Shown piece after piece: positions 3,391-51,082 of a DNA stretch of 64,000 bases (its first letter is position 1; every line of letters starts with the position of its first letter). The notes beneath the pieces were generated by a model, which was given only the letters and a program-made list of their open reading frames with translations, searched no databases and was not told the origin of the DNA. Both the position numbers and the translations under genes were made by a program. This DNA is from Minisyncoccota bacterium (GTDB taxonomy: Bacteria > Patescibacteriota > Minisyncoccia > Phycocordibacterales > JBAZVT01), in NCBI GenBank assembly GCA_041660745.1, contig JBAZVT010000003.1:1880-65879 (forward strand). Direction: 5' to 3'.

Positions 3391-4059
3391 ATGCGAATAC
3401 TAATTGTTGATGATGATGAGAGTATGGGCAAGATGCTCCAAAAGGGTTTAGAAAAAATGGGTTACGCCGCAGATTATCTTTCAGATCCGGAATTGGCAGA
3501 ACGCCGTCTAAGTGTTTCTCATATGGATTATGACGCTGTTATTCTAGACCTCATGATGCCTAAGAAGACTGGTTTTGAAGTTGCAAAAAGTCTTCGTTCT
3601 CAGAAGATTGGTATTCCTATTCTTGTCCTCTCTGGCAAGTATGATATCAATGACAAGGTTGCTGCCCTTGATAGTGGGGCAGATGACTATATGGTTAAGC
3701 CATTTTCTCTTGATGAAGTTGTTGCTCGTATTAGAGCGTTGCTACGTCGTCCAAAAGAAGTGATTCCTGAAGTAATGCATACACGAAACATTACTCTTGA
3801 CCCAGCAACGCGCACTGTTACGGTGAACAACAAAGCAATTGAGCTGACTGTAAAGGAGTTCTCCCTCTTAGAATATTTAATGCGTCATCCTGGACAAGTA
3901 GTAAATCGTAATCAAATTCTTGACCATCTTTGGGGTTTTGATTTTGACTCATTTTCAAACGTTGTTGATGTGCATGTGAAAAACCTGCGTCGTAAGCTTG
4001 GTGGTGCAAAGTCGCCAATAGAAACCATTCGTGGTGTGGGGTATAGGATTAAGACTTAA
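3391..4059 (+). CDS. OmpR-family two-component response regulator (REC + winged-helix)
   Basis: MRILIVDDDESMGKML with Asp pocket and phospho-acceptor context LDLMMP. C-terminal trans_reg_C wHTH (VHVKNLRRKL...GVGYRI). Confidence 0.85.
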   Translation: MRILIVDDDESMGKMLQKGLEKMGYAADYLSDPELAERRLSVSHMDYDAVILDLMMPKKTGFEVAKSLRSQKIGIPILVLSGKYDINDKVAALDSGADDYMVKPFSLDEVVARIRALLRRPKEVIPEVMHTRNITLDPATRTVTVNNKAIELTVKEFSLLEYLMRHPGQVVNRNQILDHLWGFDFDSFSNVVDVHVKNLRRKLGGAKSPIETIRGVGYRIKT

Positions 4060-4092
4060 TATAGAGTAATAGGATAAAGAGTAATTAAGCAG

Positions 4093-4186: not shown

Positions 4187-5326
4187 TTGCTTCAAATGGC
4201 TTCAGAGAATCTTCACGGAAGAAAAATTTTTAATCATGCAGGAAGTATCGCTGCGAGTAGTTTTTTTCTTTTTATAGCATTGGGCGCTCTCGCTGTTTGC
4301 GCTTTTTTTGCAGAAAGTGTGTTTGAGCAGATTAAGGCAAAAGCTGCTACTGCCTCGGCCAGCCCTTTGGTAAAATTTAAAACAGACTCTGGCAAAAAAC
4401 CTCAATTTATTCTTCTTGGTTTTGATGGATCACGTTCTCTGGATGCGTGGGAAAAGATTCTAGATTTTTCGCAAGAAATGAAGGGGATTGGTACACATGT
4501 TAATTTTACTTTTTTTATAAGCGGAGTGTATTTATTGGATGAACAGAATAAAGATATATACAAAGATCCACTTGGAAGCATTGGGCGGTCTCTTATTGGT
4601 TTTGGAAGATCAGATGACATTGCTCCGCGGGTATCTTTTATTAATAGGGCAATTACTGATGGGCATGAAATCGGTTCTCACGCCAATGGGCATTTTAGTG
4701 GGCATCGGTGGACGTTTGAACAATGGATGCAAGAATTTACATCTTTTAATTTTTTGATTGATGCCATTAAAACAAATAACAGTAATTTGGTTTTACGCGA
4801 ATCTTTGCGAGTTTCCTCGGGCGACATTATTGGTTTCCGTGCACCAGAACTCGCTACCAATGTAAACATGTATCACGCGCTAGCCTCATCAAGTTTTGTG
4901 TATGATGCAAGTGGTATCTCACAAAAAACAGATTGGCCAAAACGAGATAAATTCGGTATATGGCATATTCCATTGTCTACTATTTTCTTGAATCCGGGTC
5001 GTATTCCTACTATTACTATGGATTATAGTGTTTTTATGACTCAAACAGACGCTCAGGACACTGTCTTGAAAGATTCTCCTGAGTGGATGAGACTATATGA
5101 ACAGTTGTCTGGTGCGTACCGGGAATTGTTTGATGGTGTATATGACGGCGGAAGAGAGCCTATTGCTATTGGACATCATTTCTCGGAATGGAATAGTGGG
5201 GTGTACTGGGAAGTTATGAAAGATTTTATTCGTGAAGAATGCGGAAAACCAGAAGTTAATTGTGTGACATACAAGGAGTTGGTGGGGTATATGGAGGCAC
5301 AAGAAAAGAGTCTGGTGAGTTTATAA
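4187..5326 (+). CDS. Polysaccharide deacetylase family protein (CE4/NodB-like) with N-terminal membrane anchor
   Basis: LLGFDGSRS (TFDDG-like motif), HEIGSHANGH (HEIG metal-binding motif), N-terminal hydrophobic helix. Likely start MASENL at 4196. Confidence 0.55.
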   Translation: MLQMASENLHGRKIFNHAGSIAASSFFLFIALGALAVCAFFAESVFEQIKAKAATASASPLVKFKTDSGKKPQFILLGFDGSRSLDAWEKILDFSQEMKGIGTHVNFTFFISGVYLLDEQNKDIYKDPLGSIGRSLIGFGRSDDIAPRVSFINRAITDGHEIGSHANGHFSGHRWTFEQWMQEFTSFNFLIDAIKTNNSNLVLRESLRVSSGDIIGFRAPELATNVNMYHALASSSFVYDASGISQKTDWPKRDKFGIWHIPLSTIFLNPGRIPTITMDYSVFMTQTDAQDTVLKDSPEWMRLYEQLSGAYRELFDGVYDGGREPIAIGHHFSEWNSGVYWEVMKDFIREECGKPEVNCVTYKELVGYMEAQEKSLVSL

Positions 5327-5362
5327 AAAGAGTGGAAATATCCACTCTTTTTATTTTATTTT
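5327..5362. terminator. Bidirectional terminator between convergent deacetylase and kinase genes
   Basis: aaaagAGTGGAaatatTCCACTctttttatttt. Confidence 0.5.
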
Positions 5363-6475
5363 TTTTGCTGAGTCTTTAATGTTGGGAAGCAGAATAAAAA
5401 ATGTTGTTCCGGCGTGGACTTTTGAGGTAAACCATATTGTCCCGCCCATTTTATCAATAATCGTTTTTACAATATATAGACCCAAGCCCGTTCCTTCTAC
5501 CTTCATGTTTTTGATATTTTTTGCACGATATAGTTTGGTAAATATATTTTTTTGTTCGTGAACGGGGATACCGTAACCATTATCTTTTATGGTAACTAAG
5601 ATCCCATTTTTAATTGACATTTTTTTAGACTGAGTGCAGTGTTGTTGGACTTCAATGGTAACTTTTCCTTTGGTGGGGGTGTATTTTAAGGCGTTTGAAA
5701 TGATATTTTGGATGACAATTCTAGTCAATTTCTCATCAATATTTAACACAGAGTCTTTTAGGTGGGATATAAATTGGAAGTGTATGTTTTTTTCTTTCGC
5801 AATATGATACTGCTCATGCATAATATCTTCGATCATTTTTTCTATATCAGTTTCGTGTGCTTCAATAGAAAATGTTCCTCCTTCAATTTTTGAAATATCG
5901 AGGAGGTTGTTGACCAAATCTGTAAGTTTGTGATTGCTGTCGTGGATTTCTCGGATGTATTCTTTTTGTTCATCCGTCATATTCATGGTTGGGTCGAGAA
6001 GCATTTCTGCGCTCATATTGATAACGGAAAGTGGCCCTCTGAATTGATGTGAAAGGAATGAAATAAATTCGGTTTTTGCTTTATCAATTTCTTTTTCTCG
6101 CGTAATATCCCGTTCTATAGCGAGGAAAAATCTTACATTTCCTTTTGAATCTATAATGGGAGATAGGTGCATTTGTGCTATGTATGTAGAACCATTTTTT
6201 CTTCGGTTCGTGATTTCATATGAGAAATTCTTTTTTTCAATAAGAATTGTCTTCCACAATTCTTTATAAAAATTCTGTGGCATGACTCCGCCCCAAAGTG
6301 ATGGTTTGTGTCCAATGATTTCCTCTTTTGTATATCCCGTCATCTTTTCGCCGACGTGATTTACATAAATGATAGTCCCTTCTTTGTCCGTAATAAAAAT
6401 ATGGTCAAACGCTTGTTCAACAGCGTTCTTAAATAGTTCTGACGAAATTGTGTTGGTAGGTTCGTTCATAGACAA
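5351..6475 (-). CDS. Cytoplasmic PAS-domain sensor histidine kinase
   Basis: PAS (FITDKEGTIIYVNHVGEKMTGYTKEEIIGHKP). HisKA H-box (LSHQFRGPL), N-box (NALKYTP), G1 (DNGYGIP), G2 (GTGLGL). No transmembrane segment. Confidence 0.85.
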   Translation of the reverse strand: MSMNEPTNTISSELFKNAVEQAFDHIFITDKEGTIIYVNHVGEKMTGYTKEEIIGHKPSLWGGVMPQNFYKELWKTILIEKKNFSYEITNRRKNGSTYIAQMHLSPIIDSKGNVRFFLAIERDITREKEIDKAKTEFISFLSHQFRGPLSVINMSAEMLLDPTMNMTDEQKEYIREIHDSNHKLTDLVNNLLDISKIEGGTFSIEAHETDIEKMIEDIMHEQYHIAKEKNIHFQFISHLKDSVLNIDEKLTRIVIQNIISNALKYTPTKGKVTIEVQQHCTQSKKMSIKNGILVTIKDNGYGIPVHEQKNIFTKLYRAKNIKNMKVEGTGLGLYIVKTIIDKMGGTIWFTSKVHAGTTFFILLPNIKDSAKKIK

Positions 6476-6683
6476 GTTCTTTTTTTATGCCAATAAGTCA
6501 TTATTAAGAAATTGTTTCAGAATTATGAAGATGTAGTATTGTATCTATGTGGCTAAATTAAGCCATATAACGTAATTTATTAATACAGTTTTACTATATA
6601 CATGAAGTATGTGATTTCTGTGTTTATTGTATACTTCATGAGAATAAATTGCAACTTTGTCAATAGCACGTTAGTATAAACTC

Positions 6684-7322
6684 ATGAAAGATGGAGATAT
6701 TGTTTTGGTTGATAAGCCGAAGGGTATTACATCGTTTGATGTGATACGGAAGTTGTGGCGAACATATGGAAAGATGAAAATGGGGCATGCGGGGACACTT
6801 GATCCAAATGCAACTGGTCTCATGATACTTGCAGTTGGGTCTGCAACAAAGCGCTTAAATGAATTTTTGAAACTGCCCAAGTGTTATGAGGCAGAAATAC
6901 AGTTCGGTATACAGACTGACAGTGGCGATTGCACAGGGAAGATTATTGCAACTACAGATACTGAAGGTCTATCCACACAGCGAATTACAGATACTCTTGT
7001 GGGGATGAAAGGAACACTTGAACTTGCAGTGCCAATGTACTCGGCAATAAAAAAAGATGGGAAAGCGTTGTATGCGTATGCTCGTGCCGGAGAAGCTGTG
7101 GTGGTTCCTGTAAAACCGATGACTATTCGTAATGCGCATTGGGATGGGTATGATTCGGTGACAGCTCGAGCAAAAGTATTCTTTGATGTGGAAAGCGGGA
7201 CGTATATTCGTACCCTTGCAGAGGAATTAGGAAGACGAATGAATACTGTTGCGACATTGGTTGAGCTTCGTCGGCTTTCAATTGGAGAATATAAAGTTGA
7301 AGGTGCTTTAAAATTGGAATAA
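6684..7322 (+). CDS. truB: tRNA pseudouridine(55) synthase TruB (short form, no PUA domain)
   Basis: VDKPKGITSFDVIRKL, GHAGTLDPNATGLMILAVGSATK with catalytic Asp motif. Confidence 0.85.
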   Translation: MKDGDIVLVDKPKGITSFDVIRKLWRTYGKMKMGHAGTLDPNATGLMILAVGSATKRLNEFLKLPKCYEAEIQFGIQTDSGDCTGKIIATTDTEGLSTQRITDTLVGMKGTLELAVPMYSAIKKDGKALYAYARAGEAVVVPVKPMTIRNAHWDGYDSVTARAKVFFDVESGTYIRTLAEELGRRMNTVATLVELRRLSIGEYKVEGALKLE

Positions 7323-7490: not shown

Positions 7491-8213
7491 TTAGAAGGTC
7501 TTTTTAATGTATACGAGGTACTCTATATTGCCAGTTCCGCCAATAATAGGAGATTGGATTGATTCCCATTCTGATAGGTGGTTTGCAGTCGTCCAGGCGT
7601 GAATTTTCTCAAGTGCAGAATTGCGGGCGTTTTTGTCAGTCACAACGCCCTGTCTGTTGAGATTGTCTTGTCCCACTTCAAATTGTGGTTTTACAAGGGC
7701 TATAATTTCGGCATCGTTTTTTAATAATGTCAGTACTGCAGGTAGGACTTGTGTCAGGGAAATAAAAGAAACGTCTATGACTGCGAGATCAACCAGCTCG
7801 GGTAGTTGTACTTTCCTCACATCCATCTGTTCTAGGGTGATGACGCGCGAATCATTTCGTAGTGAAGCATCAAGTTGGTTTGTGCCGACATCAATGGCAT
7901 ATACTTTTTGTGCCCCCGCTTGCAATAGGCAGTCTGTAAAACCTCCGGTTGATGATCCGATATCTGCCACTACATATCCTGATGGTTTTACAGAAAATAC
8001 TTCTAAAGCTTTCTGTAATTTTTCACCACCACGACTCACAAAAGGAAGAGGTTTTATGATATGTATATCTAACTCCTCTTCAATTTCCTCGCTTGGTTTT
8101 ATAATTGATTTGTTATTAATGGTTACCAGGCCGCGTTTAATAAGCTCGGCTGCGGCGGTGCGAGAACGACAAAGCCCTTTTTTAAACATGAGAACATCGA
8201 CTCTTTTTTTCAT
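7491..8213 (-). CDS. tlyA: TlyA-family rRNA 2'-O-methyltransferase (S4 + FtsJ-like domains)
   Basis: N-terminal S4 RNA-binding (RVDVLMFKKGLCRSRTAAAELIKRGLVTIN). SAM motif VADIGSSTGGFTDCLL. Confidence 0.8.
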   Translation of the reverse strand: MKKRVDVLMFKKGLCRSRTAAAELIKRGLVTINNKSIIKPSEEIEEELDIHIIKPLPFVSRGGEKLQKALEVFSVKPSGYVVADIGSSTGGFTDCLLQAGAQKVYAIDVGTNQLDASLRNDSRVITLEQMDVRKVQLPELVDLAVIDVSFISLTQVLPAVLTLLKNDAEIIALVKPQFEVGQDNLNRQGVVTDKNARNSALEKIHAWTTANHLSEWESIQSPIIGGTGNIEYLVYIKKTF

Positions 8214-18417: not shown

Positions 18418-18945
18418 ATGACCAAGGTTCAGGGTAATTGCGTTATTTTCTTGCTTGTGTCATTGATCATTGTTGGTTTTTGTATGCTTCCGGTGAACAA
18501 GCGTGAAAAACTGCTTCAGAATCAGTCAACAATGGCGCCGGCGGCAATGTCTCAAAACACCAGAGTCTTTCTGGATTACGTCGCTGGCAAGACAATCTCC
18601 AAGACTGACGTGGACGAAGCCTTTTACATAAGGGGTTCGGCTGGTTGGCTCGACACGGAGAAGATTCTTCGTGTGGCGAATGATCTCAAGGTTCCATGGG
18701 CTCAAGTCCATGATACGCTGGTTGTTCTCAACGAGAACTCGACAGTCATGTACATCGGTTCACAGGACAAGATTCTCGCCAAGTTTCGGGCGACCACTCA
18801 GCCAACCACAGCGCCGACGGTTCAGGTGGAGGCGACAAGTCAGGGTTCGTTGCCACCGGCAAGTGTCGTCGTCTATGGATGCTGGGCTCGCAACTATGTG
18901 GAGTCGGCGTACCAGGCGACTCATGATATGGGTCGGTGGGAATAA
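18418..18945 (+). CDS. Hypothetical membrane-anchored protein inside a GC-rich (~52%) island
   Basis: N-terminal TM (VIFLLVSLIIVGFCML); no recognisable domain. Local GC clearly above the ~40% flanks; island bounded by promoter and two terminators. Confidence 0.55.
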   Translation: MTKVQGNCVIFLLVSLIIVGFCMLPVNKREKLLQNQSTMAPAAMSQNTRVFLDYVAGKTISKTDVDEAFYIRGSAGWLDTEKILRVANDLKVPWAQVHDTLVVLNENSTVMYIGSQDKILAKFRATTQPTTAPTVQVEATSQGSLPPASVVVYGCWARNYVESAYQATHDMGRWE

Positions 18946-23083: not shown

Positions 23084-24004
23084 CTAAAGAAATAAAAGAC
23101 CCGTAACGATAAGTACTATTGCTAGCGTCTGCATGATAAATTCTTTTCGAGTAAAATCTTCGGAGAATATTTTAGGGCGCATTTTTGTAAGAAGAAATAT
23201 AAAAATAAATACAAGGACATATTGTAAGCCAGCAAGCGCATTGACGATTGCCACACTTCCTATTGCAATAGCGTATTGAATACAGAGGGTGGAAACAATC
23301 CCAAGAGTTTTTGTTGTTGCAAACTTTGTGATTGATCCTTTTTGTTTTTCTACAGGTTGTTGCTGTGACTGTTCTGGAATGGCAACTTTTTTGTTGAATA
23401 TTTGTTTTCTAAAGCGGGGAATTAAAATAATGGCAATACCAACAATTCCTATTGAGCTTTTTGTCCAGATGAGTCCATTAATGAAGGGGTAGAGGGTGTA
23501 GATGTGTTTTGCGGAGATGTGTGAAAATGCAAATAGTAATCCGGAAATTATCGCCCACAGGAAGCCAAGATAGAGACCTTTTTCTCTATTGCTTTTTTCA
23601 TAGGAAAGAAAAAAGCTTGCGCCAATGAGAAGGGTGAGTCCTATTTTTTCATGCGGACTAAATGATGTGTTGAGTACAAAATACGAAAGAATAGCAGTTG
23701 CGACTGCGACTACCGCACCGACAAGTGGTGTAAGGTGGCTCGCTTCTCCGTGTCTGAACGCTATGTACATGGCCCACACTCCAAGACCGAAAGATATACC
23801 TGAGCCGAGCGACCACAACAAGTCTATGTTGTGTGGAAATCCAAAAAACGGTAGAAGGACTACAGTTATTGCTGAGAAGATTGTTGTGTAAAAAGCATAT
23901 ACTGCCGGATGTTTGAAGTTTGTTGTCAGAATACTTTTGTCTAATATTGAGACAAAAGCTAGAGCTGCATATCCGACAGATGCAAAGATAAATGAAGTGA
24001 TCAT
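23084..24004 (-). CDS. Polytopic membrane protein, EamA/DMT-like transporter
   Basis: ~10 predicted TM helices in two halves; no catalytic motifs. Confidence 0.45.
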   Translation of the reverse strand: MITSFIFASVGYAALAFVSILDKSILTTNFKHPAVYAFYTTIFSAITVVLLPFFGFPHNIDLLWSLGSGISFGLGVWAMYIAFRHGEASHLTPLVGAVVAVATAILSYFVLNTSFSPHEKIGLTLLIGASFFLSYEKSNREKGLYLGFLWAIISGLLFAFSHISAKHIYTLYPFINGLIWTKSSIGIVGIAIILIPRFRKQIFNKKVAIPEQSQQQPVEKQKGSITKFATTKTLGIVSTLCIQYAIAIGSVAIVNALAGLQYVLVFIFIFLLTKMRPKIFSEDFTRKEFIMQTLAIVLIVTGLLFL

Positions 24005-25356: not shown

Positions 25357-25792
25357 ATAGATAGATTATAGCAAGTAATCTATCTGTTGTGCCATGATAT
25401 AACTGTGAATAATAGAGCCTGTTTACAATCTAATGTTTGAAACAAAAAAGACGAGCGAGTTTTGGAAAACTCGCTCGTCTTTTTTGGTATGTAATAATTA
25501 CAAGCTGAATGTGGTGCCGAGGAAATATGGCCAAAGGATAATGGCGAGTACTCCTTTCCAGAAGGCGAGGTGAAGAAAGCCTATGGTGAAAAGCCATGCT
25601 CCTACCCATAATAACCCCGCACAACCACCTTGATTGACGTTTATTTTTTGCATGGTTTCAGTGTATAATTTTTTTATGTGAAATGAGGGAAGAGTTTTAT
25701 TGCTATGGTAGGATGAGATAAGTATAAAAAATCCGTCGGGAACCACTTGGTGGTTCCCGACGGGGTATTGGCTGTATGCCGAGATAGGGGGG

Positions 25793-26392
25793 TTACCCAT
25801 GCTTGACTTGCGGAGTGAGGAATCTTTGCCCGCTCGCTTTTTTCTGACGCATCCACTTCGTGATCATCCGGTCGTAGTCCGAGGTAGCTGCAAAGACCTT
25901 GATCACCAACCTCTCGCGCTGGTCTTCCGAGATAGCGCCGGTTACAGTCAGTGATGCAACCACCCACTCATAATCGGTAGGATCAATGACCGGGATTGTC
26001 GAGATCCCGTTCTTGGACGCTGCGCGGATGAGCGAGGGGCCGCCGATATCAATCTCCTCAATGTCAGGTTTGTTCTTGAAGTCGTACAGATTGACCACGA
26101 CGAGATCAATCAGGTCGATGTGGTGCTCGACGAGCGCCGCAAGGTGTGCGGGAATGGCTCGTGCGGCGAGTATGCCGCCGAAGATGTTTGGATGGAGTGT
26201 CTTGACACGGCCGTCCAGCATTTCGGGAAAGCCCGTGACCTGCTCAATCGGAGTTACCTCGATGCCGACTGCCCGCAGTGCTTTCGCCGTCCCGCCGGTA
26301 GAGATGAACTCCCAACCTAGGGTGGCGAGCGGAAGAAGTTTTTCCAACCCACTCTTGTCCGTAACCGACACCAGTGCTCTTGGCATTGCCAT
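25793..26392 (-). CDS. Standalone IMP cyclohydrolase domain of PurH (MGS-like fold); AICAR-transformylase half absent
   Basis: MAMPRALVSVTDKSGL...STGGTAKAL...GFPEMLDGRVKTLHPNIFGGILA...VVNLYDF...IDIGGPSLIRAASKN aligns along PurH residues 1-199. High GC (~55%), adjacent to IS481. May be a truncated remnant. Confidence 0.65.
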   Translation of the reverse strand: MAMPRALVSVTDKSGLEKLLPLATLGWEFISTGGTAKALRAVGIEVTPIEQVTGFPEMLDGRVKTLHPNIFGGILAARAIPAHLAALVEHHIDLIDLVVVNLYDFKNKPDIEEIDIGGPSLIRAASKNGISTIPVIDPTDYEWVVASLTVTGAISEDQRERLVIKVFAATSDYDRMITKWMRQKKASGQRFLTPQVKHG

Positions 26393-26479
26393 GAGAACTC
26401 CTTTTTAGGATTTTCTGCCACTGAAAGCCGTGGCCGCTTAACCGTTCTGAATGTAAGACTACGTATTTAATTTTTTATG

Positions 26480-27529
26480 TCAAGATTTTGTACTCGTCCA
26501 CCACATATGAGACTCTGACGCTGGTAATGTAGACACAATATACCTCAAAGGAGATACAAGACCAAGCGACCAATGAGGACGCCTAGTGTTGTACCAAAGT
26601 AACCAATTAATGAGAGCTTCATTAAAAGCATCAATGTCATGAGCTAAAAGTTTTCTGTTTCTGTTAACAAAAGCTTCCACAACAGTTCGGTTGAATCGTT
26701 CAACTTCAGCGTTCATTTTTGGCGATCTTGGATATGTGTGAAAATGAACGATGTTGTTCTTTTCAAGCAGAACGTCAAAGTGGTCAGCAAACTCACTACC
26801 ATTGTCTGTTTGCACATGCGTAACAGGAAGTGGTGCAACATGTTTAAACTTCATCATGAAGTCAGCAGATGCTTTTGATGAATGAGAAGTATACGCATAT
26901 GCAAAAGCAAATTTTGATTCGCAATCAATACCAGTGAGCAAATATCTTTTAATACCATCGGTGAAGCGGATGACCGAATCTGCTTTAACTAGTCCTCCTT
27001 CGTGACCTTTAGAACGCAGTTTCTTGCGTTTAACTCTGATTTTCTCTCGAAAGGTATCTGATTTTGCATAGTATGAAAGTTTCGTATATTTTGGAAGTTT
27101 TCCTTGTTTCTTGAGATCATTTAACATTCGACCGACAGTAGATGCGGAGAGATCGGCAACCTTGTCTTCTTTCATGAGTACCGCCAGTTTGTCTTTGGAA
27201 AGTCTTGGATCATTCTGGCGTTCCTTGAGAATGAAATCTTCTACAACTTTTGGGATGACACGTTTTCTTCTTTGTTTAGGAGCAGTACTTTTTTTGTTGA
27301 GAAACTCCAGTTTTCCCATACCATCTCGAAGTTCTTTTTGCCAGCGAAAAAGAGTTGGTCTTGAAATGCCAAAGGCTTCTTTAGTGGCAGTTGTTCCATA
27401 CTTCTCCCAAAACGCTAATATCCTGCACCTTTCTTTTGCGGTTTCGCTAATCATATACTTGAAGCGTATCACACGCTCCCAAGTACTAATGAAGCCCTTT
27501 GTTCCTCTAAATTTATTGAAAATGCGCAT
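26480..27529 (-). CDS. IS481-family transposase (HTH + rve DDE integrase core)
   Basis: N-terminal HTH, then integrase core (THVQTDNGSEF...YNTRRPHWSLG) characteristic of IS481/IS3-like rve transposases. Confidence 0.85.
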   Translation of the reverse strand: MRIFNKFRGTKGFISTWERVIRFKYMISETAKERCRILAFWEKYGTTATKEAFGISRPTLFRWQKELRDGMGKLEFLNKKSTAPKQRRKRVIPKVVEDFILKERQNDPRLSKDKLAVLMKEDKVADLSASTVGRMLNDLKKQGKLPKYTKLSYYAKSDTFREKIRVKRKKLRSKGHEGGLVKADSVIRFTDGIKRYLLTGIDCESKFAFAYAYTSHSSKASADFMMKFKHVAPLPVTHVQTDNGSEFADHFDVLLEKNNIVHFHTYPRSPKMNAEVERFNRTVVEAFVNRNRKLLAHDIDAFNEALINWLLWYNTRRPHWSLGLVSPLRYIVSTLPASESHMWWTSTKS

Positions 27530-27560
27530 ATGAAAACTCTAATTAAAGAGTCTCATATGT
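26503..27560. mobile_element. IS481-family insertion sequence (~1.06 kb) with perfect 14-bp terminal inverted repeats
   Basis: Left IR acatatgagactct (26503-26516), right IR agagtctcatatgt (27547-27560), enclosing a single transposase gene. Confidence 0.7.
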
Positions 27561-27670
27561 TTCTGAACTTATGCAGGTTATGGCAAAAAACGCCTTAGCA
27601 GGAGAGCCCCAAGACTAACTGTTGAAAAAAGCCTCAAAAGTGCTAAGGTGTATACATACAAACTTATACC

Positions 27671-29047
27671 ATGAGAATTCTATTCATCTCAAACGACCTT
27701 ATAGCTGGAAATCTCGCCTATCGCCTCAAACAAGAAGGTCATGATGTTAAGTTGTTCGTTGAAGAACCCCTCAGTAAAGAATGCTTCTCTGGATTAGTAG
27801 AAAAAATCGAAGATTGGAAAAAGGAACTTGATTGGGTTGGAAAAGACGGGTTGATTGTTTTTGATGACGCAGGATACGGTGAAATGCAAGAAAAGCTTCG
27901 TAACGATGGCTATACTGTATTTGGCGGTTGCTATGTTGGCGACAAACTTGAAACAGAAAGAGAGTACGGCCAAGCAATCTTCAAAGAATACGGCCTCAAG
28001 ACAGCTCCCCTCAAAAACTTTTCTTCTGTCCAAGATGCAATTGCATATGTAAAGAAAAATGGTGGGTCCTGGGTTATCAAACAAAACAACCACAACTTCA
28101 AACATCTCAGCTACGTGGGTAAATTTGAGGACGGAAGAGATATTGTTAACGTTCTAGAAAACTACGAACTACGCAACGGAGAGATAGACAAAATTACTCT
28201 GCATAAAAAGATTGAAGGCGTGGAAATAGGAGTGGGTAGATATTTTAATGGAACAGACTGGGTAGGGCCAATAGAATATAATATAGAACATACGAAACTA
28301 TTCCCTGGCTGTATTGGACCGACAACGAGCGAAATGGGAACTCTTGCTTGGTATGACGATGATGAATCAGGCAAACTTTTTAAAGAAAATTTAAATCTTC
28401 TCAAGCCATTCCTGCAACATATAGGCTATCGAGGTGATTTTGAAGTCAATTTTATAGTTAACGAGACGGGTGCATATCCACTGGAAGCAACCGCGCGTCT
28501 CGGCACCCCCATCATTCATTTGCATGATGAGATACACGAGAGTCCATGGGGAGAATTTTTATATGCCATCGCCCGTGGTGAACAATATGATTTAAAATAC
28601 AAGAAAGGATTTGGTATTGTCGTTGTTATTGCCACTCCCCCATTCCCATACTCAGAACGTGCTTACAATAGACTTTCAAACAACAACTCATACCGCTACA
28701 ACATATATTTTGATCACGAGATGAGCGCAGAAGAAATGAGCCATATTCATTTTGAAGAGGTGGCTGTGCGTGCTACTGATCCAAAACAACTCTATGTTGC
28801 AGACAGCCGAGGTAATGTTCTCTATGTTACTGGTATGGGACAAACAATCCAGGAAGCACGGGATATCACCTACGAAAAAATAAAACCGATTGTTATTCCT
28901 AAAATGTTCTACAGAAACGATATCGGAGTCGAATTTGAAAAAAATAGTCTTGGAAAACTTAAGGAATGGGGCTACATAGCCGACGGAGAAAAAAGTGAGG
29001 TAGCAGAAATGAACACAATTAGTGAGAAAACGATCGTAGGAATATAA
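27671..29047 (+). CDS. PurD-family ATP-grasp enzyme (phosphoribosylamine--glycine ligase-like, divergent)
   Basis: MRILFISND N-domain; ATP-grasp segment AIAYVKKNGGSWVIKQNN; C-terminal VLYVTGMGQTIQEARDITYEKIKPI...FYRNDIG parallels PurD VLCVTALGHTVAEAQ...FCRKDIG. Confidence 0.6.
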   Translation: MRILFISNDLIAGNLAYRLKQEGHDVKLFVEEPLSKECFSGLVEKIEDWKKELDWVGKDGLIVFDDAGYGEMQEKLRNDGYTVFGGCYVGDKLETEREYGQAIFKEYGLKTAPLKNFSSVQDAIAYVKKNGGSWVIKQNNHNFKHLSYVGKFEDGRDIVNVLENYELRNGEIDKITLHKKIEGVEIGVGRYFNGTDWVGPIEYNIEHTKLFPGCIGPTTSEMGTLAWYDDDESGKLFKENLNLLKPFLQHIGYRGDFEVNFIVNETGAYPLEATARLGTPIIHLHDEIHESPWGEFLYAIARGEQYDLKYKKGFGIVVVIATPPFPYSERAYNRLSNNNSYRYNIYFDHEMSAEEMSHIHFEEVAVRATDPKQLYVADSRGNVLYVTGMGQTIQEARDITYEKIKPIVIPKMFYRNDIGVEFEKNSLGKLKEWGYIADGEKSEVAEMNTISEKTIVGI

Positions 29048-29066
29048 TTCGCATCCAAAAGAACAA

Positions 29067-29093
29067 AAAACCGCCACACGGCGGTTTTTTGTT
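29067..29093. terminator. Rho-independent terminator
   Basis: aaaaaaCCGCCacacGGCGGttttttg. Confidence 0.6.
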
Positions 29094-29104
29094 ACAGACT
29101 ATTT

Positions 29105-30094
29105 TTATGTTTCTAAAAGCTCTCGTATCCCATCTTCAATATTCACTGTTGGCTTCCAGTCGAGAAGTTTCTTAGCAAGCGCATTATCAGCAAGAGTGTG
29201 TTTCGGTTCTAAACGTCCAGAAATATGTTCAACGGGACCGCCAATAAGCTCGGCAATTTTATTAATTGAAACATTATTCCCCGCCCCAATATTTATCACC
29301 TCACCCTTCCCCACCTTATCACTTTCCATTGCCAAGATATTTGCTCGCACAACATCACGCACATGAGTAAAATCGCGAGTCTGTTTACCATCTCCAACAA
29401 TAGTCATTGGCTTCCCTACCTGTCGCTGTTTCAAAAAACTCGGGATTACAAGTGCATATGCACCCTCAGAACTCTGCCTCAAACCATATACATTAAAATA
29501 TCTGAGACTGACTGTAGGCACCCTGTACACCTCGCTCCATGTCTTGCAATATATTTCTCCAACATATTTTTGTAAGCCATAGGGACTCTTGGGCATTGCA
29601 GTCATAGACTCAACCAGTGGCATTGTTGGTTGGTCACCATATACAGAACTTGAAGCAGAATAAATAAGTTTTTTGACCCCTGCCCATCTACATGCCTCAA
29701 GCACATTTATTGTTCCGCCAATATTAACTTCGTTTGTTTCCTGAGGATGTTCTATAGAATACTGAACGCGAGGCAAAGCAGCACAATGGAAGACGTACTG
29801 AACATCTTTAAATACTTTCTTTATTGATTCCAGACTACACACATCGGCAATATGAAGTGTTGCTTTTTTGTTCACATTTTCTCTCCTCCCTTCAGATAAA
29901 TTATCTATAATATGCACATTGAAACCTCTTTCAACTAATGCATCAACTATATTAGAGCCAATAAAACCGGCACCGCCGGTTACAACAACTTTTATAGTTG
30001 ATGGCGGGATAGTGACTCGTTTTAGTCTACTTCGTTTTGTATTTTTATTTTTCATTATCATCATAGGAAGAGACATTATAACGTATCTAGACAA
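29105..30094 (-). CDS. NAD-dependent epimerase/dehydratase (UDP-glucose 4-epimerase-like), paralog A
   Basis: Rossmann VVVTGGAGFIGSN, catalytic YxxxK (PYGLQKYVGE). Likely start at MKNKNTKR (~30055). ~70% identical to paralog B. Confidence 0.8.
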   Translation of the reverse strand: MSRYVIMSLPMMIMKNKNTKRSRLKRVTIPPSTIKVVVTGGAGFIGSNIVDALVERGFNVHIIDNLSEGRRENVNKKATLHIADVCSLESIKKVFKDVQYVFHCAALPRVQYSIEHPQETNEVNIGGTINVLEACRWAGVKKLIYSASSSVYGDQPTMPLVESMTAMPKSPYGLQKYVGEIYCKTWSEVYRVPTVSLRYFNVYGLRQSSEGAYALVIPSFLKQRQVGKPMTIVGDGKQTRDFTHVRDVVRANILAMESDKVGKGEVINIGAGNNVSINKIAELIGGPVEHISGRLEPKHTLADNALAKKLLDWKPTVNIEDGIRELLET

Positions 30095-30241: not shown

Positions 30242-30325
30242 CGACGTAGAGCGAACGAACTGAAAAAGTGCTGACTTTTTCAGTTCTGAGCCGAGGAAGG
30301 CATCAAAGGGTAAATACCCTTTATT
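30242..30325. repeat. Palindromic intergenic repeat, family 2 (inverted copy) between the two epimerase paralogs
   Basis: Reverse complement matches AGGGTATTTACCCTTTGATGCCTTCCTCGGCTC...CTACGTCG seen at 7399-7483. Confidence 0.6.
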
Positions 30326-31244
30326 TCTCCATCTCCAACAGCTCCCTTATCCCCTCCTCAATTTTCATTGATGGTTTCCAGCCAAGTAACTTACGGGCAC
30401 GTGAATTATCTGCAAGGGTGTGTTTCGGTTCAAGACGTGCGGGGATATGCTCTGCGGGACCGCCAATGAGTTTGGCGATTTCATTCACGGAAATATTCTG
30501 TCCGGATCCTATATTAATCACCTCGCCCTTCCCCACCTTATCGCTCCCCATCGCTAAAATATTTGCTTGTACAATATCTCGCACATGAGTGAAGTCGCGA
30601 GTCTGTGTACCATCTCCTGTAATAGTCATCTTCTTGCCCTCACGATGCTGTTTGAGAAACCGGGCAATAACAAGTGCATAAGCACCCTCTTCGCTCTGGC
30701 GAGGGCCGTAGGCATTAAAATAGCGCAAACTGACGGTAGACAAGCCATACACCTCACTCCACGTTTTACAATAGAGTTCCCCGACATATTTCTGTAAACC
30801 ATAGGGACTTTTTGGACTGGCAAGCATACCTTCCACAAGAGGCATTTTTGTCTGATCACCATATGCCGCAGATGAGGCGGAATAGATAAGTTTTTTCACC
30901 CCTGAAGCGCGACAGGCCTCAAGCACATTTATTGTTCCGCCAATATTAACCTCGTTTGTTTCTTGAGGATGTTCTATAGAATACTGAACTCGAGGCATCG
31001 CAGCAAGATGGAATACATAGTCAGCACCTTTGAATAATTTTTTCAGAGCTGTGAAATTACAAATATCTGCGACATGAAGATGTGCCTTTTTATGCACATT
31101 CTTTCTCTTCCCCTCCGAAAGATTATCTACAACATGAACATCGAAACCCTTCTCCACAAGTGCATCTGTTAGATTTGAACCTATAAATCCTGCTCCACCA
31201 GTGACGACAACTTTGATTTTTGAATCATTCTTCAATGCAGGCAT
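30321..31244 (-). CDS. NAD-dependent epimerase/dehydratase (UDP-glucose 4-epimerase-like), paralog B
   Basis: MPALKNDSKIKVVVTGGAGFIGSN; same catalytic motifs as paralog A. Confidence 0.85.
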   Translation of the reverse strand: MPALKNDSKIKVVVTGGAGFIGSNLTDALVEKGFDVHVVDNLSEGKRKNVHKKAHLHVADICNFTALKKLFKGADYVFHLAAMPRVQYSIEHPQETNEVNIGGTINVLEACRASGVKKLIYSASSAAYGDQTKMPLVEGMLASPKSPYGLQKYVGELYCKTWSEVYGLSTVSLRYFNAYGPRQSEEGAYALVIARFLKQHREGKKMTITGDGTQTRDFTHVRDIVQANILAMGSDKVGKGEVINIGSGQNISVNEIAKLIGGPAEHIPARLEPKHTLADNSRARKLLGWKPSMKIEEGIRELLEMEK

Positions 31245-37495: not shown

Positions 37496-40919
<3,424 letters not shown>

Positions 40920-50386: not shown

Positions 50387-51082
50387 TTATTTTGGCTCAC
50401 CTCTTAAATCTCCAAGATCCCTGAACTCAAGCCAGTCAGAAACAATACTTTCAAAAGATGGCGCTGGAGACGAAAAGTAATCCGGAAACTCATCAGCTTT
50501 TAGTATTTTTGATTCAGGTCTTAAATTAAAGTTAATTTCCACATATTCCTTGTAACTTGAATATTTATAATTATCTAAGAAATTCTCAGCTTTTTGCATG
50601 TCCACAACCCCCCTCTCTTTCCACGCAGGATCAATAATCTTTACCGGATTTAAATGTATATATGAAACTAAATACTTTAAATATTCGTCGGTATTTGCAT
50701 GAACTGCTTTAAATCGGCTCTCAAAAAGACTTCCGGTCCGTGTATTTTTTCTATTGAAATACATTGAGTATGACGTAAGCAATTTACCCAAAAATTTACT
50801 TATACCACCTTCTTCTGTTTCTTTTAAAAGTATGTGGAAATGATTTGGCATCAAACAGTATGCGCCGACAGAAACAATACTATCTTTCTTTTGAAAATTA
50901 AAAATATCCTTAAATTCCTTCTCAATCTCCCTAAAAGTTATATTTTGAGATGTATTATAAACAAATAAACCTTTAATAAAACGTTGATAATCTCTTTCGT
51001 CCTGAAAAATAAAGCGTTTATCAACGCCTCGAGCATAAATGTGATAGTACTCTCCTACACTAAATTCGATTTTTCTTTGCAT
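50387..51082 (-). CDS. IS200/IS605-family Y1 HUH transposase, REP-associated (RAYT / TnpA_REP-like)
   Basis: HUH motif LMPNHFHILL; catalytic Tyr region YLKYLVSYIHLNP; N-terminal YHIYARGVDKRFIF. 231 aa; flanked on both sides by REP palindromes. Confidence 0.8.
   Translation of the reverse strand: MQRKIEFSVGEYYHIYARGVDKRFIFQDERDYQRFIKGLFVYNTSQNITFREIEKEFKDIFNFQKKDSIVSVGAYCLMPNHFHILLKETEEGGISKFLGKLLTSYSMYFNRKNTRTGSLFESRFKAVHANTDEYLKYLVSYIHLNPVKIIDPAWKERGVVDMQKAENFLDNYKYSSYKEYVEINFNLRPESKILKADEFPDYFSSPAPSFESIVSDWLEFRDLGDLRGEPK

Follow-up and report, generated by a model that had tools for sequence, protein, structure and literature searches.

We analysed 64,000 nucleotides of a Candidatus Paceibacterota metagenome-assembled genome (contig JBAZVT010000003.1, positions 1,880–65,879; this whole stretch is called the window below), in which a GC-rich open reading frame (ORF) for the IMP cyclohydrolase (IMPCH) domain of PurH, an IS481-like insertion sequence (IS) and a gene related to purD lie next to one another. 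We conclude, with a probability of about 0.75, that the region consists of three independent items: a functional, foreign, stand-alone IMPCH gene, an intact IS481-like element between genes and a native ATP-grasp ligase that is a paralogue of PurD. The three encoded proteins have the same sequences as MFA6094465, MFA6094466 and MFA6094467, on a contig of 80.8 kb. An earlier note on this DNA had instead proposed a single GC-rich island of purine genes, split by the IS.

We compared the window with two Logan contigs, L002 and L003, which derive from two runs of one related organism and whose neighbouring proteins are 76–81% identical to those of the window. No transposase is found in either contig, and both hold the IMPCH gene (68–70% identity) at the same locus as the window. 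Downstream of it, the window and both contigs share the gene order 51-amino-acid (aa) gene, DUF6938, EamA, glycosyl hydrolase, Grx, VanY and CLIPPER, while the promoter-like sequence TTGACA-N16-TAGTCT is found at the equal position. The gene is also GC-rich in these relatives (GC 0.56 versus 0.42, with a GC content at third codon positions, GC3, of 0.72). Because IS-free relatives hold IMPCH with the same locus, promoter, downstream genes and GC excess, the IS neither delivered nor broke the gene. The earlier note had suggested one or the other, and had itself named the same gene in the same context in related genomes as the observation that would speak against its proposal. Examined as a genomic island, the gene is likewise not absent from relatives, being present at the syntenic site in L002 and L003.

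A complete stand-alone IMPCH gene

The IMPCH gene (25793–26392, minus strand) encodes a complete PurH N-domain of 199 aa and, as the earlier note had recognized, this domain only. The ORF matches Pfam MGS (62 bits, cut-off 24), the first 62 positions of AICARFT_IMPCHas and positions 5–198 of the 510 in NCBIfam PRK00881, and it scores far under the cut-offs of the NCBIfam PurH equivalogs (218 against 402, and 192 against 528). It stops at residue 199, with no C-terminal 5-aminoimidazole-4-carboxamide ribonucleotide (AICAR) formyltransferase (AICARFT) domain, and thus does not qualify as a bifunctional PurH. A full-length PurH query found only the N-domain and no AICARFT remnant in the window, in agreement with the earlier report that this half is missing. 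Alignment with solved PurH and ATIC structures extended over the whole domain (E = 7e-43 to 3e-33).

Residues K64, Y103, D115 and K127 of the protein align with K66, Y104, D125 and K137 of human ATIC, which we take to be its catalytic set, and none of them varies among 38 family members. The protein also keeps the nucleotide-binding motifs SVTDK, STGGT, GRVKTLHP and IDIGGP, and the ratio of nonsynonymous to synonymous substitution (dN/dS) between the window gene and its L002 orthologue is 0.16. For human ATIC, Y104 and K66 have been described as conserved active-site residues (PMC9525906). The IMPCH gene is complete and under purifying selection; with invariant catalytic residues and a dN/dS of 0.16, it is not decaying, which removes the decay that the earlier note had considered. 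Judging from the conserved catalytic and nucleotide-binding residues, the protein would be expected to close the ring of formyl-AICAR (FAICAR) to give IMP, and it may serve in a non-canonical, salvage-type role. NCBI names the product (MFA6094465.1) a hypothetical protein.

We then compared the protein with its homologues. Nearly all of the best 120 homologues are 182–221 aa long and several sit on contigs of 0.1–1 Mb; some carry the NCBI name 'IMP cyclohydrolase [Patescibacteria group bacterium]'. We built a neighbour-joining tree from the N-domains of 40 stand-alone and 78 full-length proteins; the clade that contains the window protein has 34 stand-alone members and no full-length one. Between NLY(D)F and IDIGGP, 37 of the 40 stand-alone proteins have a distance of 13 residues and all 78 full-length ones a distance of 21–22, so that a 9-residue loop deletion is present in 37/40 of the former and 0/78 of the latter. 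By its sequence, then, the gene is a member of an old and large Patescibacterial stand-alone clade and no fragment of purH; this clade would long have been without the AICARFT half.

Where called genes were annotated (L084, L086 and L088), IMPCH stands alone amid housekeeping genes, for example HisRS, DnaG, sigma-70 and GatCA, and a search of the window and a further 306 kb from Patescibacterial loci revealed no AICARFT domain. A profile search of the contigs of named genomes with the IMPCH alignment returned L004 as the sole Patescibacterial locus among the matches listed, the rest being full-length PurH of ordinary bacteria. In many Patescibacteria, the final enzyme of the purine pathway appears to be the only one kept, in the form of a distinct and long-standing stand-alone protein, and such an orphan IMPCH points to a gap in metabolic reconstructions of episymbionts, namely the supplier of FAICAR. 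Our literature search found no relevant paper on stand-alone IMPCH, purH or purD in the candidate phyla radiation (CPR)/Patescibacteria.

Stand-alone IMPCH-domain proteins are already known elsewhere. With the N-domain of bifunctional PurH/ATIC, the window protein shares an alignment over the whole domain, the four catalytic residues and the nucleotide-binding motifs, whereas it has neither a fused nor a nearby AICARFT, lacks nine residues after NLY(D)F and reads NLYDF instead of NLYPF. ForH of the formycin cluster (PDB 6NKO) is a solved stand-alone IMPCH-domain protein of 216 aa (E = 4e-25, and 1.6e-40 with the family profile), and is cited as the IMPCH homologue by which that cluster was located (PMC7118188). 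It comes, however, from a secondary-metabolite cluster of a Streptomyces with 72% GC and matches less well than PurH does, and the window gene has no biosynthetic cluster around it. The third comparison is with phage split purH (PHROG 30501), which also has a separate IMPCH ORF of ~195–210 aa and whose profile is matched end to end (E = 1e-39). Among the 80 best viral loci (L101–L180, IMG/VR phage contigs), IMPCH is a stand-alone ORF in 75; at least 26 loci have an AICARFT ORF of ~313 aa as its separate neighbour (in L119, IMPCH at 633–1202 and AICARFT at 1238–2233), so that the pathway step is still complete there. PurM, MazG and DnaB-like genes are frequent near these split genes. Phage IMPCH has the long 22-residue loop and is 40–47% identical to the window protein; unlike both ForH and the phage proteins, the Patescibacterial clade shows the loop deletion and lacks a neighbouring formyltransferase partner.

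The window gene is flanked by its own signals. Upstream, a likely promoter (26456–26483, minus strand) consists of TTGACA (26483–26478), a 16-nt spacer and TAGTCT (26461–26456); the −10 hexamer fits three of the six consensus positions and was hence missed by a consensus scan, and promoter activity is predicted from this arrangement. The 5′ untranslated region (UTR; 26393–26455, minus strand), which was aligned with that of L002 and L003, carries the Shine–Dalgarno sequence AAAGGAG and a 25-nt block, GTTAAGCGGCCACGGCTTTCAGTGG (window 26408–26432, minus strand; L002 ~7944–7968), that is identical in the window and both relatives and holds a 5-bp hairpin; the coding sequence, by contrast, is just 71% identical. 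No Rfam match for a riboswitch or other RNA was found in this 5′ UTR, and its fold is ordinary (z = −1.1). Directly after the stop codon lies an intrinsic terminator (25733–25763, minus strand) with a 14-bp stem of 10 G–C pairs followed by ATTTTTT. The tiny hydrophobic ORF that the earlier note had placed between 25430 and 25790 is there, as a small 51-aa membrane-protein gene (25498–25653, minus strand) that is 82% identical to the syntenic ORF in L002 and L003 and is called as a gene in L003 and in a further Logan contig, L001. It is accompanied by two hairpin terminators, of which the second (I1, 25443–25486) is a perfect 21-bp hairpin, 100% complementary around a 2-nt loop, with A and T runs on its sides; it forms a bidirectional terminator-like element between the 51-aa and DUF6938 genes.

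Base composition and origin of the gene

The IMPCH ORF has a GC content of 0.56, against 0.41 for the window, and a GC3 of 0.675, against a mean of 0.341 (s.d. 0.038, maximum 0.415) for 36 real window genes (z = 8.7). The shift towards GC extends to all three codon positions and to the amino acids encoded (GARP/FYMINK ratio of 1.15 versus a window mean of 0.79). In this region, the deviation is limited to the 600-bp IMPCH ORF, as both the IS (GC 0.39, GC3 0.33) and the PurD-like gene (GC 0.40, GC3 0.36) are of native composition. The windowed GC check that had been proposed therefore upholds the strong deviation of the IMPCH ORF and does not extend it to the flanking IS and PurD-like gene, which leaves no GC-rich island.

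Since the IMPCH gene is compositionally foreign in its genome, it was most likely acquired horizontally. Homologues 58–59% identical to it occur in Patescibacteria of higher GC (L084, 60%; L086, 53%), and the origin that we consider most likely is that a gene which already stood alone was taken up from a Patescibacterium of higher GC. As the GC excess is shared by L002 and L003, the foreign composition predates the split between their lineage and that of the window; the transfer would have preceded this split and been followed by purifying selection. Of the horizontally acquired purine fragment that the earlier note had envisaged, the foreign composition stands, while both the fragment and the island fall away, the gene belonging to a stand-alone clade with its own loop deletion.

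Further GC-rich genes were observed in both organisms. About 1 kb upstream of its IMPCH gene, L002 has two more (5122–7022), a 186-aa ORF (GC 0.60) and a gene for an AAA_28 P-loop protein (GC 0.55), with AT-rich small ORFs between them; both genes are absent from the window. The IMPCH locus seems to gather foreign genes. Elsewhere in the window, a second gene-sized GC-rich ORF (18418–18945, plus strand; 175 aa, GC 0.51, GC3 0.585) has no Pfam match, and no gene is called as its counterpart between VanY and CLIPPER in L002.

The alternative that survives best, unlikely though we judge it, is that the gene was inherited vertically and that its high GC is kept by selection on codons, mRNA structure or an overlapping antisense ORF. 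GC3 is steady at 0.68–0.72 in two lineages whose synonymous sites are saturated (dS ~1.6 between window and L002, with a third-position identity of 0.53 at identical residues), and IMPCH lies 5–8 GC points over its genome in L084 and L086. In L088 and L004, however, it equals or falls below the GC of its genome. An antisense ORF (25986–26408) is open in the window and the matching frame aligns with L002 over 125 aa at 68% identity and with no stops, but GC-rich third positions by themselves yield open antisense frames. The first and second codon positions and the amino acids are GC-shifted too, which fits a GC-rich donor, and the lineage has other gene-sized GC-rich inserts, namely the window ORF at 18418–18945 and the 186-aa and AAA_28 genes of L002.

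The insertion sequence and the PurD-like ligase

The IS481-like element spans ~1,098 bp (26478–27575, minus strand), with its ends set by aligning it to other copies. Copies L098, L099 and L100 are homologous to it from exactly TGCATAAGTTCA (window 27575) to TTGAC(A) (26478–26483), the flanks being unrelated; in transposase orientation, the element reads 5′-TGCATAAG ... CTTGACA-3′. Its transposase gene is intact (26480–27529, minus strand; 349 aa), matches Pfam rve, rve_3 and HTH_32 and encodes the DDE residues D184, D242 and E277, with a D-to-E spacing of 35 residues. The best NCBIfam model is that of IS481 (NF033577), at 176 bits and hence under the cut-off of 224. The earlier note had described an intact IS481 bounded by 14-bp inverted repeats at 26503 and 27560. 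Transposase and perfect repeats were confirmed; the repeats are sub-terminal, the left copy, ACATATGAGACTCT (26503–26516), lying 25 nt inside the 3′ end and the right copy (27547–27560) 15 nt inside the 5′ end, while the termini themselves are imperfect TG...CA.

More than 100 transposase homologues are 70–79% identical and of equal length (348–349 aa), mostly on contigs of ~1.2 kb, which is the usual signature of a repeat. Scanning metagenomes with the pattern of the 3′ end yielded two copies, which suffice for fixing the ends and do not show multi-copy status in the genome; no copies were found in viral contigs. The search for a target-site duplication that the earlier note had recommended gave only matches of 4–5 bp, no more than chance would yield in 1,640 combinations of boundaries, and the boundaries taken from the comparison of copies showed no match. 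A candidate relic of the IS end in L002, upstream of TTGACA, was rejected, since 959 of 5,000 shuffles scored equally well. In its single DDE transposase with N-terminal helix–turn–helix and rve core, its length of ~1.1 kb, its TG...CA termini and inverted repeats and its wide occurrence as short repeat contigs, the element resembles the IS481 family. It differs in its score below the model cut-off, the sub-terminal position of the perfect repeats, the lack of a detected target duplication and the make-up of its 3′ end.

At this end, the transposase stop codon lies inside the terminal TTGACA, and the terminus coincides with the −35 hexamer of the IMPCH promoter. In all four copies, a −10-like TAnnnT hexamer (TAGTCT, TATAAT, TAATAT and TAGTAT) follows exactly 16 nt past the IS end, although the flanking DNA is otherwise unrelated (in L098, the end and its hexamer lie at ~4045–4075). 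Either the IS bears an outward −35 box that makes hybrid promoters, or it inserts right beside promoters. Because its terminal TTGACA coincides with the −35 box, which the IS would supply or abut, the IMPCH gene should remain expressible. An IS that ends in a −35 hexamer with a −10-like box beyond it in every copy bears on how insertions avoid silencing downstream genes in tiny genomes.

The IS lies between two divergently oriented genes and splits neither, contrary to the view of a purine island split by the element; we propose that it inserted between genes, upstream of IMPCH, and interrupted nothing. Homology between the window and L002 ends at TTGACA, and upstream of the IS synteny with L002 is lost. 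The lost synteny, together with the missing target duplication, suggests that an IS-mediated rearrangement placed the PurD-like gene beside IMPCH.

The PurD-related ORF that the earlier note had reported is present at 27671–29047 (plus strand) and encodes a 458-aa ATP-grasp ligase of native composition, with GARS_A and GARS_C matches just over the Pfam cut-offs. Against TIGR00877, the model for PurD, the protein scores 90.6 bits, far from the cut-off of 288. Its homologues fall into 1,336 clusters at E ≤ 1e-5, and the best 120 are 53–62% identical, the named ones being from Paceibacterota/Parcubacteria. A structure model (pLDDT 89, pTM 0.89) was compared with the PDB using Foldseek; the top 15 matches are all glycinamide ribonucleotide synthetases (TM-scores 0.67–0.78 over 434–462 aligned columns), with biotin carboxylases ranking lower.

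We aligned 15 family members with four canonical PurD proteins and found that GGREHA, APGN, DHKR, GPNTGGMG and RFGDPE are missing from the protein; all of these except DHKR are taken as signature motifs of PurD, in line with the canonical rows of the alignment. All 15 members have DLIAGNLA, a deletion, GPxTSEMGT and R[FL]G[ST]PI in place of GGREHA, APGN, GPNTGGMG and R-[LF]-G-D-P-E, respectively. The protein shares with PurD the four-domain ATP-grasp fold, the ATP-grasp residues (K137, K144, E185, E272 and R276) and the C-terminal YRxDIG; it differs in the missing substrate motifs, an identity of 20–23% to true PurD, its conserved EamA neighbour and the absence of a pur operon. It is best described as an ATP-dependent amine–carboxylate ligase, which probably joins a pair other than that of PurD. 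We propose that it is a native paralogue that would have kept the ATP-grasp machinery and the PurD fold without the substrate-binding signatures. Because these motifs are missing, the family, which is routinely annotated 'phosphoribosylamine--glycine ligase', should not count as evidence of purine synthesis.

In four of four other lineages (L090, L092, L094 and L096), the PurD-like gene adjoins an orthologous EamA transporter gene; these EamA proteins are 39–41% identical to one another, their orientation varies and the block also includes HisKA, TrpRS/TyrRS and DnaJ/DnaK/GrpE. A functional pairing of ligase and transporter is possible. The EamA gene of the window (23084–24004) was considered as the partner and rejected, as it is no orthologue (23–27% identity, against 39–41% among those orthologues). 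Within at most 8–10 kb per side, no IMPCH gene was found near the PurD-like gene in the four other lineages, and no pur genes were found around it in the five lineages examined. The juxtaposition with IMPCH is thus peculiar to the genome of the window, and a family conserved across Paceibacterota, usually beside EamA, is no part of an island. For the PurD-like gene and DUF6938, an origin in a defence system or a phage was rejected, as neither gene had PADLOC or PHROG matches.

Competing readings and the wider window

Several points weigh against three independent items as we have described them. The activity of the IMPCH protein is deduced from sequence, and it is biochemically odd to have the enzyme of the final purine step when nothing is known to supply its FAICAR. 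A gene for AICARFT or PurP may sit elsewhere in the genome, our search having covered the window. GC3 has stayed at 0.68–0.72 in both lineages despite saturated synonymous sites, where one ancient transfer and neutral amelioration predict otherwise, and selection, later allele replacement or an unreliable dS estimate may account for this. No donor was found, the nearest sequences with DNA being just 58–59% identical. The 3′ boundary of the IS is ambiguous by ~6 nt, such that TTGACA may be IS-borne or native, and the rearrangement upstream is deduced from lost synteny and the missing duplication rather than observed.

The short-loop IMPCH might mark an unrecognized route to IMP in organisms that lack de novo purine synthesis, in which FAICAR would come from a host, or from salvaged AICAR through a formyl-transferring enzyme other than PurH (the PurD-like ligase being a candidate), and selection would hold the GC-rich codons in the lineage of the window; we regard this combination as doubtful. 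A further reading, which we find slightly less probable still, joins the two window genes in a two-step salvage of AICAR to IMP. Archaeal PurP is an ATP-grasp FAICAR synthetase, and by analogy the ligase would formylate AICAR with formate and ATP before IMPCH closes the ring. Both genes are widespread in Patescibacteria with no AICARFT in the examined loci, the ligase has ATP-grasp catalytic residues without PurD substrate motifs and hence a different substrate, and the two genes are adjacent in the window. This adjacency is found in the window only, however: five other IMPCH lineages have no PurD-like gene within 7–10 kb per side where the contig allows, and the four other PurD-like lineages have no IMPCH within at most 8–10 kb per side. 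The two genes also differ in history, one being foreign and the other native in composition, the conserved partner of the PurD-like gene is the EamA transporter, and the PurD-like protein has no sequence similarity to the Pfam PurP families.

The recently acquired purH–purD island of the earlier note, delivered or broken by the IS481 and with a truncated, decaying purH, now appears very improbable. In its favour, the IMPCH ORF is strongly GC-rich and has an IS directly beside it, and canonical pur operons, such as those of the Bacillales loci L014 and L074, do place purH next to purD. Against this, the PurD-like gene and the IS are native in composition, the stand-alone gene sits at this locus in IS-free relatives too, and its clade has a loop deletion of its own. 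The gene also has intact catalytic residues, a dN/dS of 0.16 and no AICARFT remnant, and the two genes are divergently oriented, one of them encoding a protein just 20–23% identical to real PurD. That the island dissolves is a caution against reading too much into purine genes that lie beside an IS in CPR genomes.

That the abrupt, gene-sized GC shift reflects an assembly chimera or binning contaminant can be set aside, because L001, a Logan contig from an independent assembly (99.97% identity across 10.7 kb, breaking inside the IS end at 26517), spans the IMPCH gene and its native flanks with identical junctions, which also occur in L002 and L003, two runs of a related organism, while the promoter and 5′ UTR run on into native flanks.

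The gene content of the window looks typical of a CPR chromosome, with enolase, iPGM, two-component genes, FtsW, FtsK, RecA, EF-P, L10/L12 and a 23S–5S rRNA pair, and besides the IMPCH and PurD-like genes no purine-synthesis genes were found in it. At ~28000–29500, the sign of the GC skew flips and the cumulative skew reaches its peak, and genes lie on the plus strand left of ~19 kb and on the minus strand right of 29 kb. The pattern resembles that of a replication terminus, a kind of region in which foreign genes and IS elements tend to gather; no dif-like site was found at the skew switch, the single weak match sitting at 42.4 kb. The 23S rRNA gene (37507–40906, minus strand) is 3,400 nt long against a model of 2,925 positions, with ~475 nt of insertions, and no ORF of ≥120 aa was found inside it. 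Just beyond the PurD-like gene, two adjacent genes for NAD-dependent epimerases/dehydratases (29105–30094 and 30321–31244, minus strand), whose proteins are 77% identical, represent a tandem duplication. A short stretch at 45400–45600 reaches a GC of 0.53–0.55 upstream of the gene for a 1,263-aa beta-helix protein. The second mobile-element gene of the window is an ORF with an IS200-like Y1 transposase domain (50387–51082, minus strand; GC 0.32).

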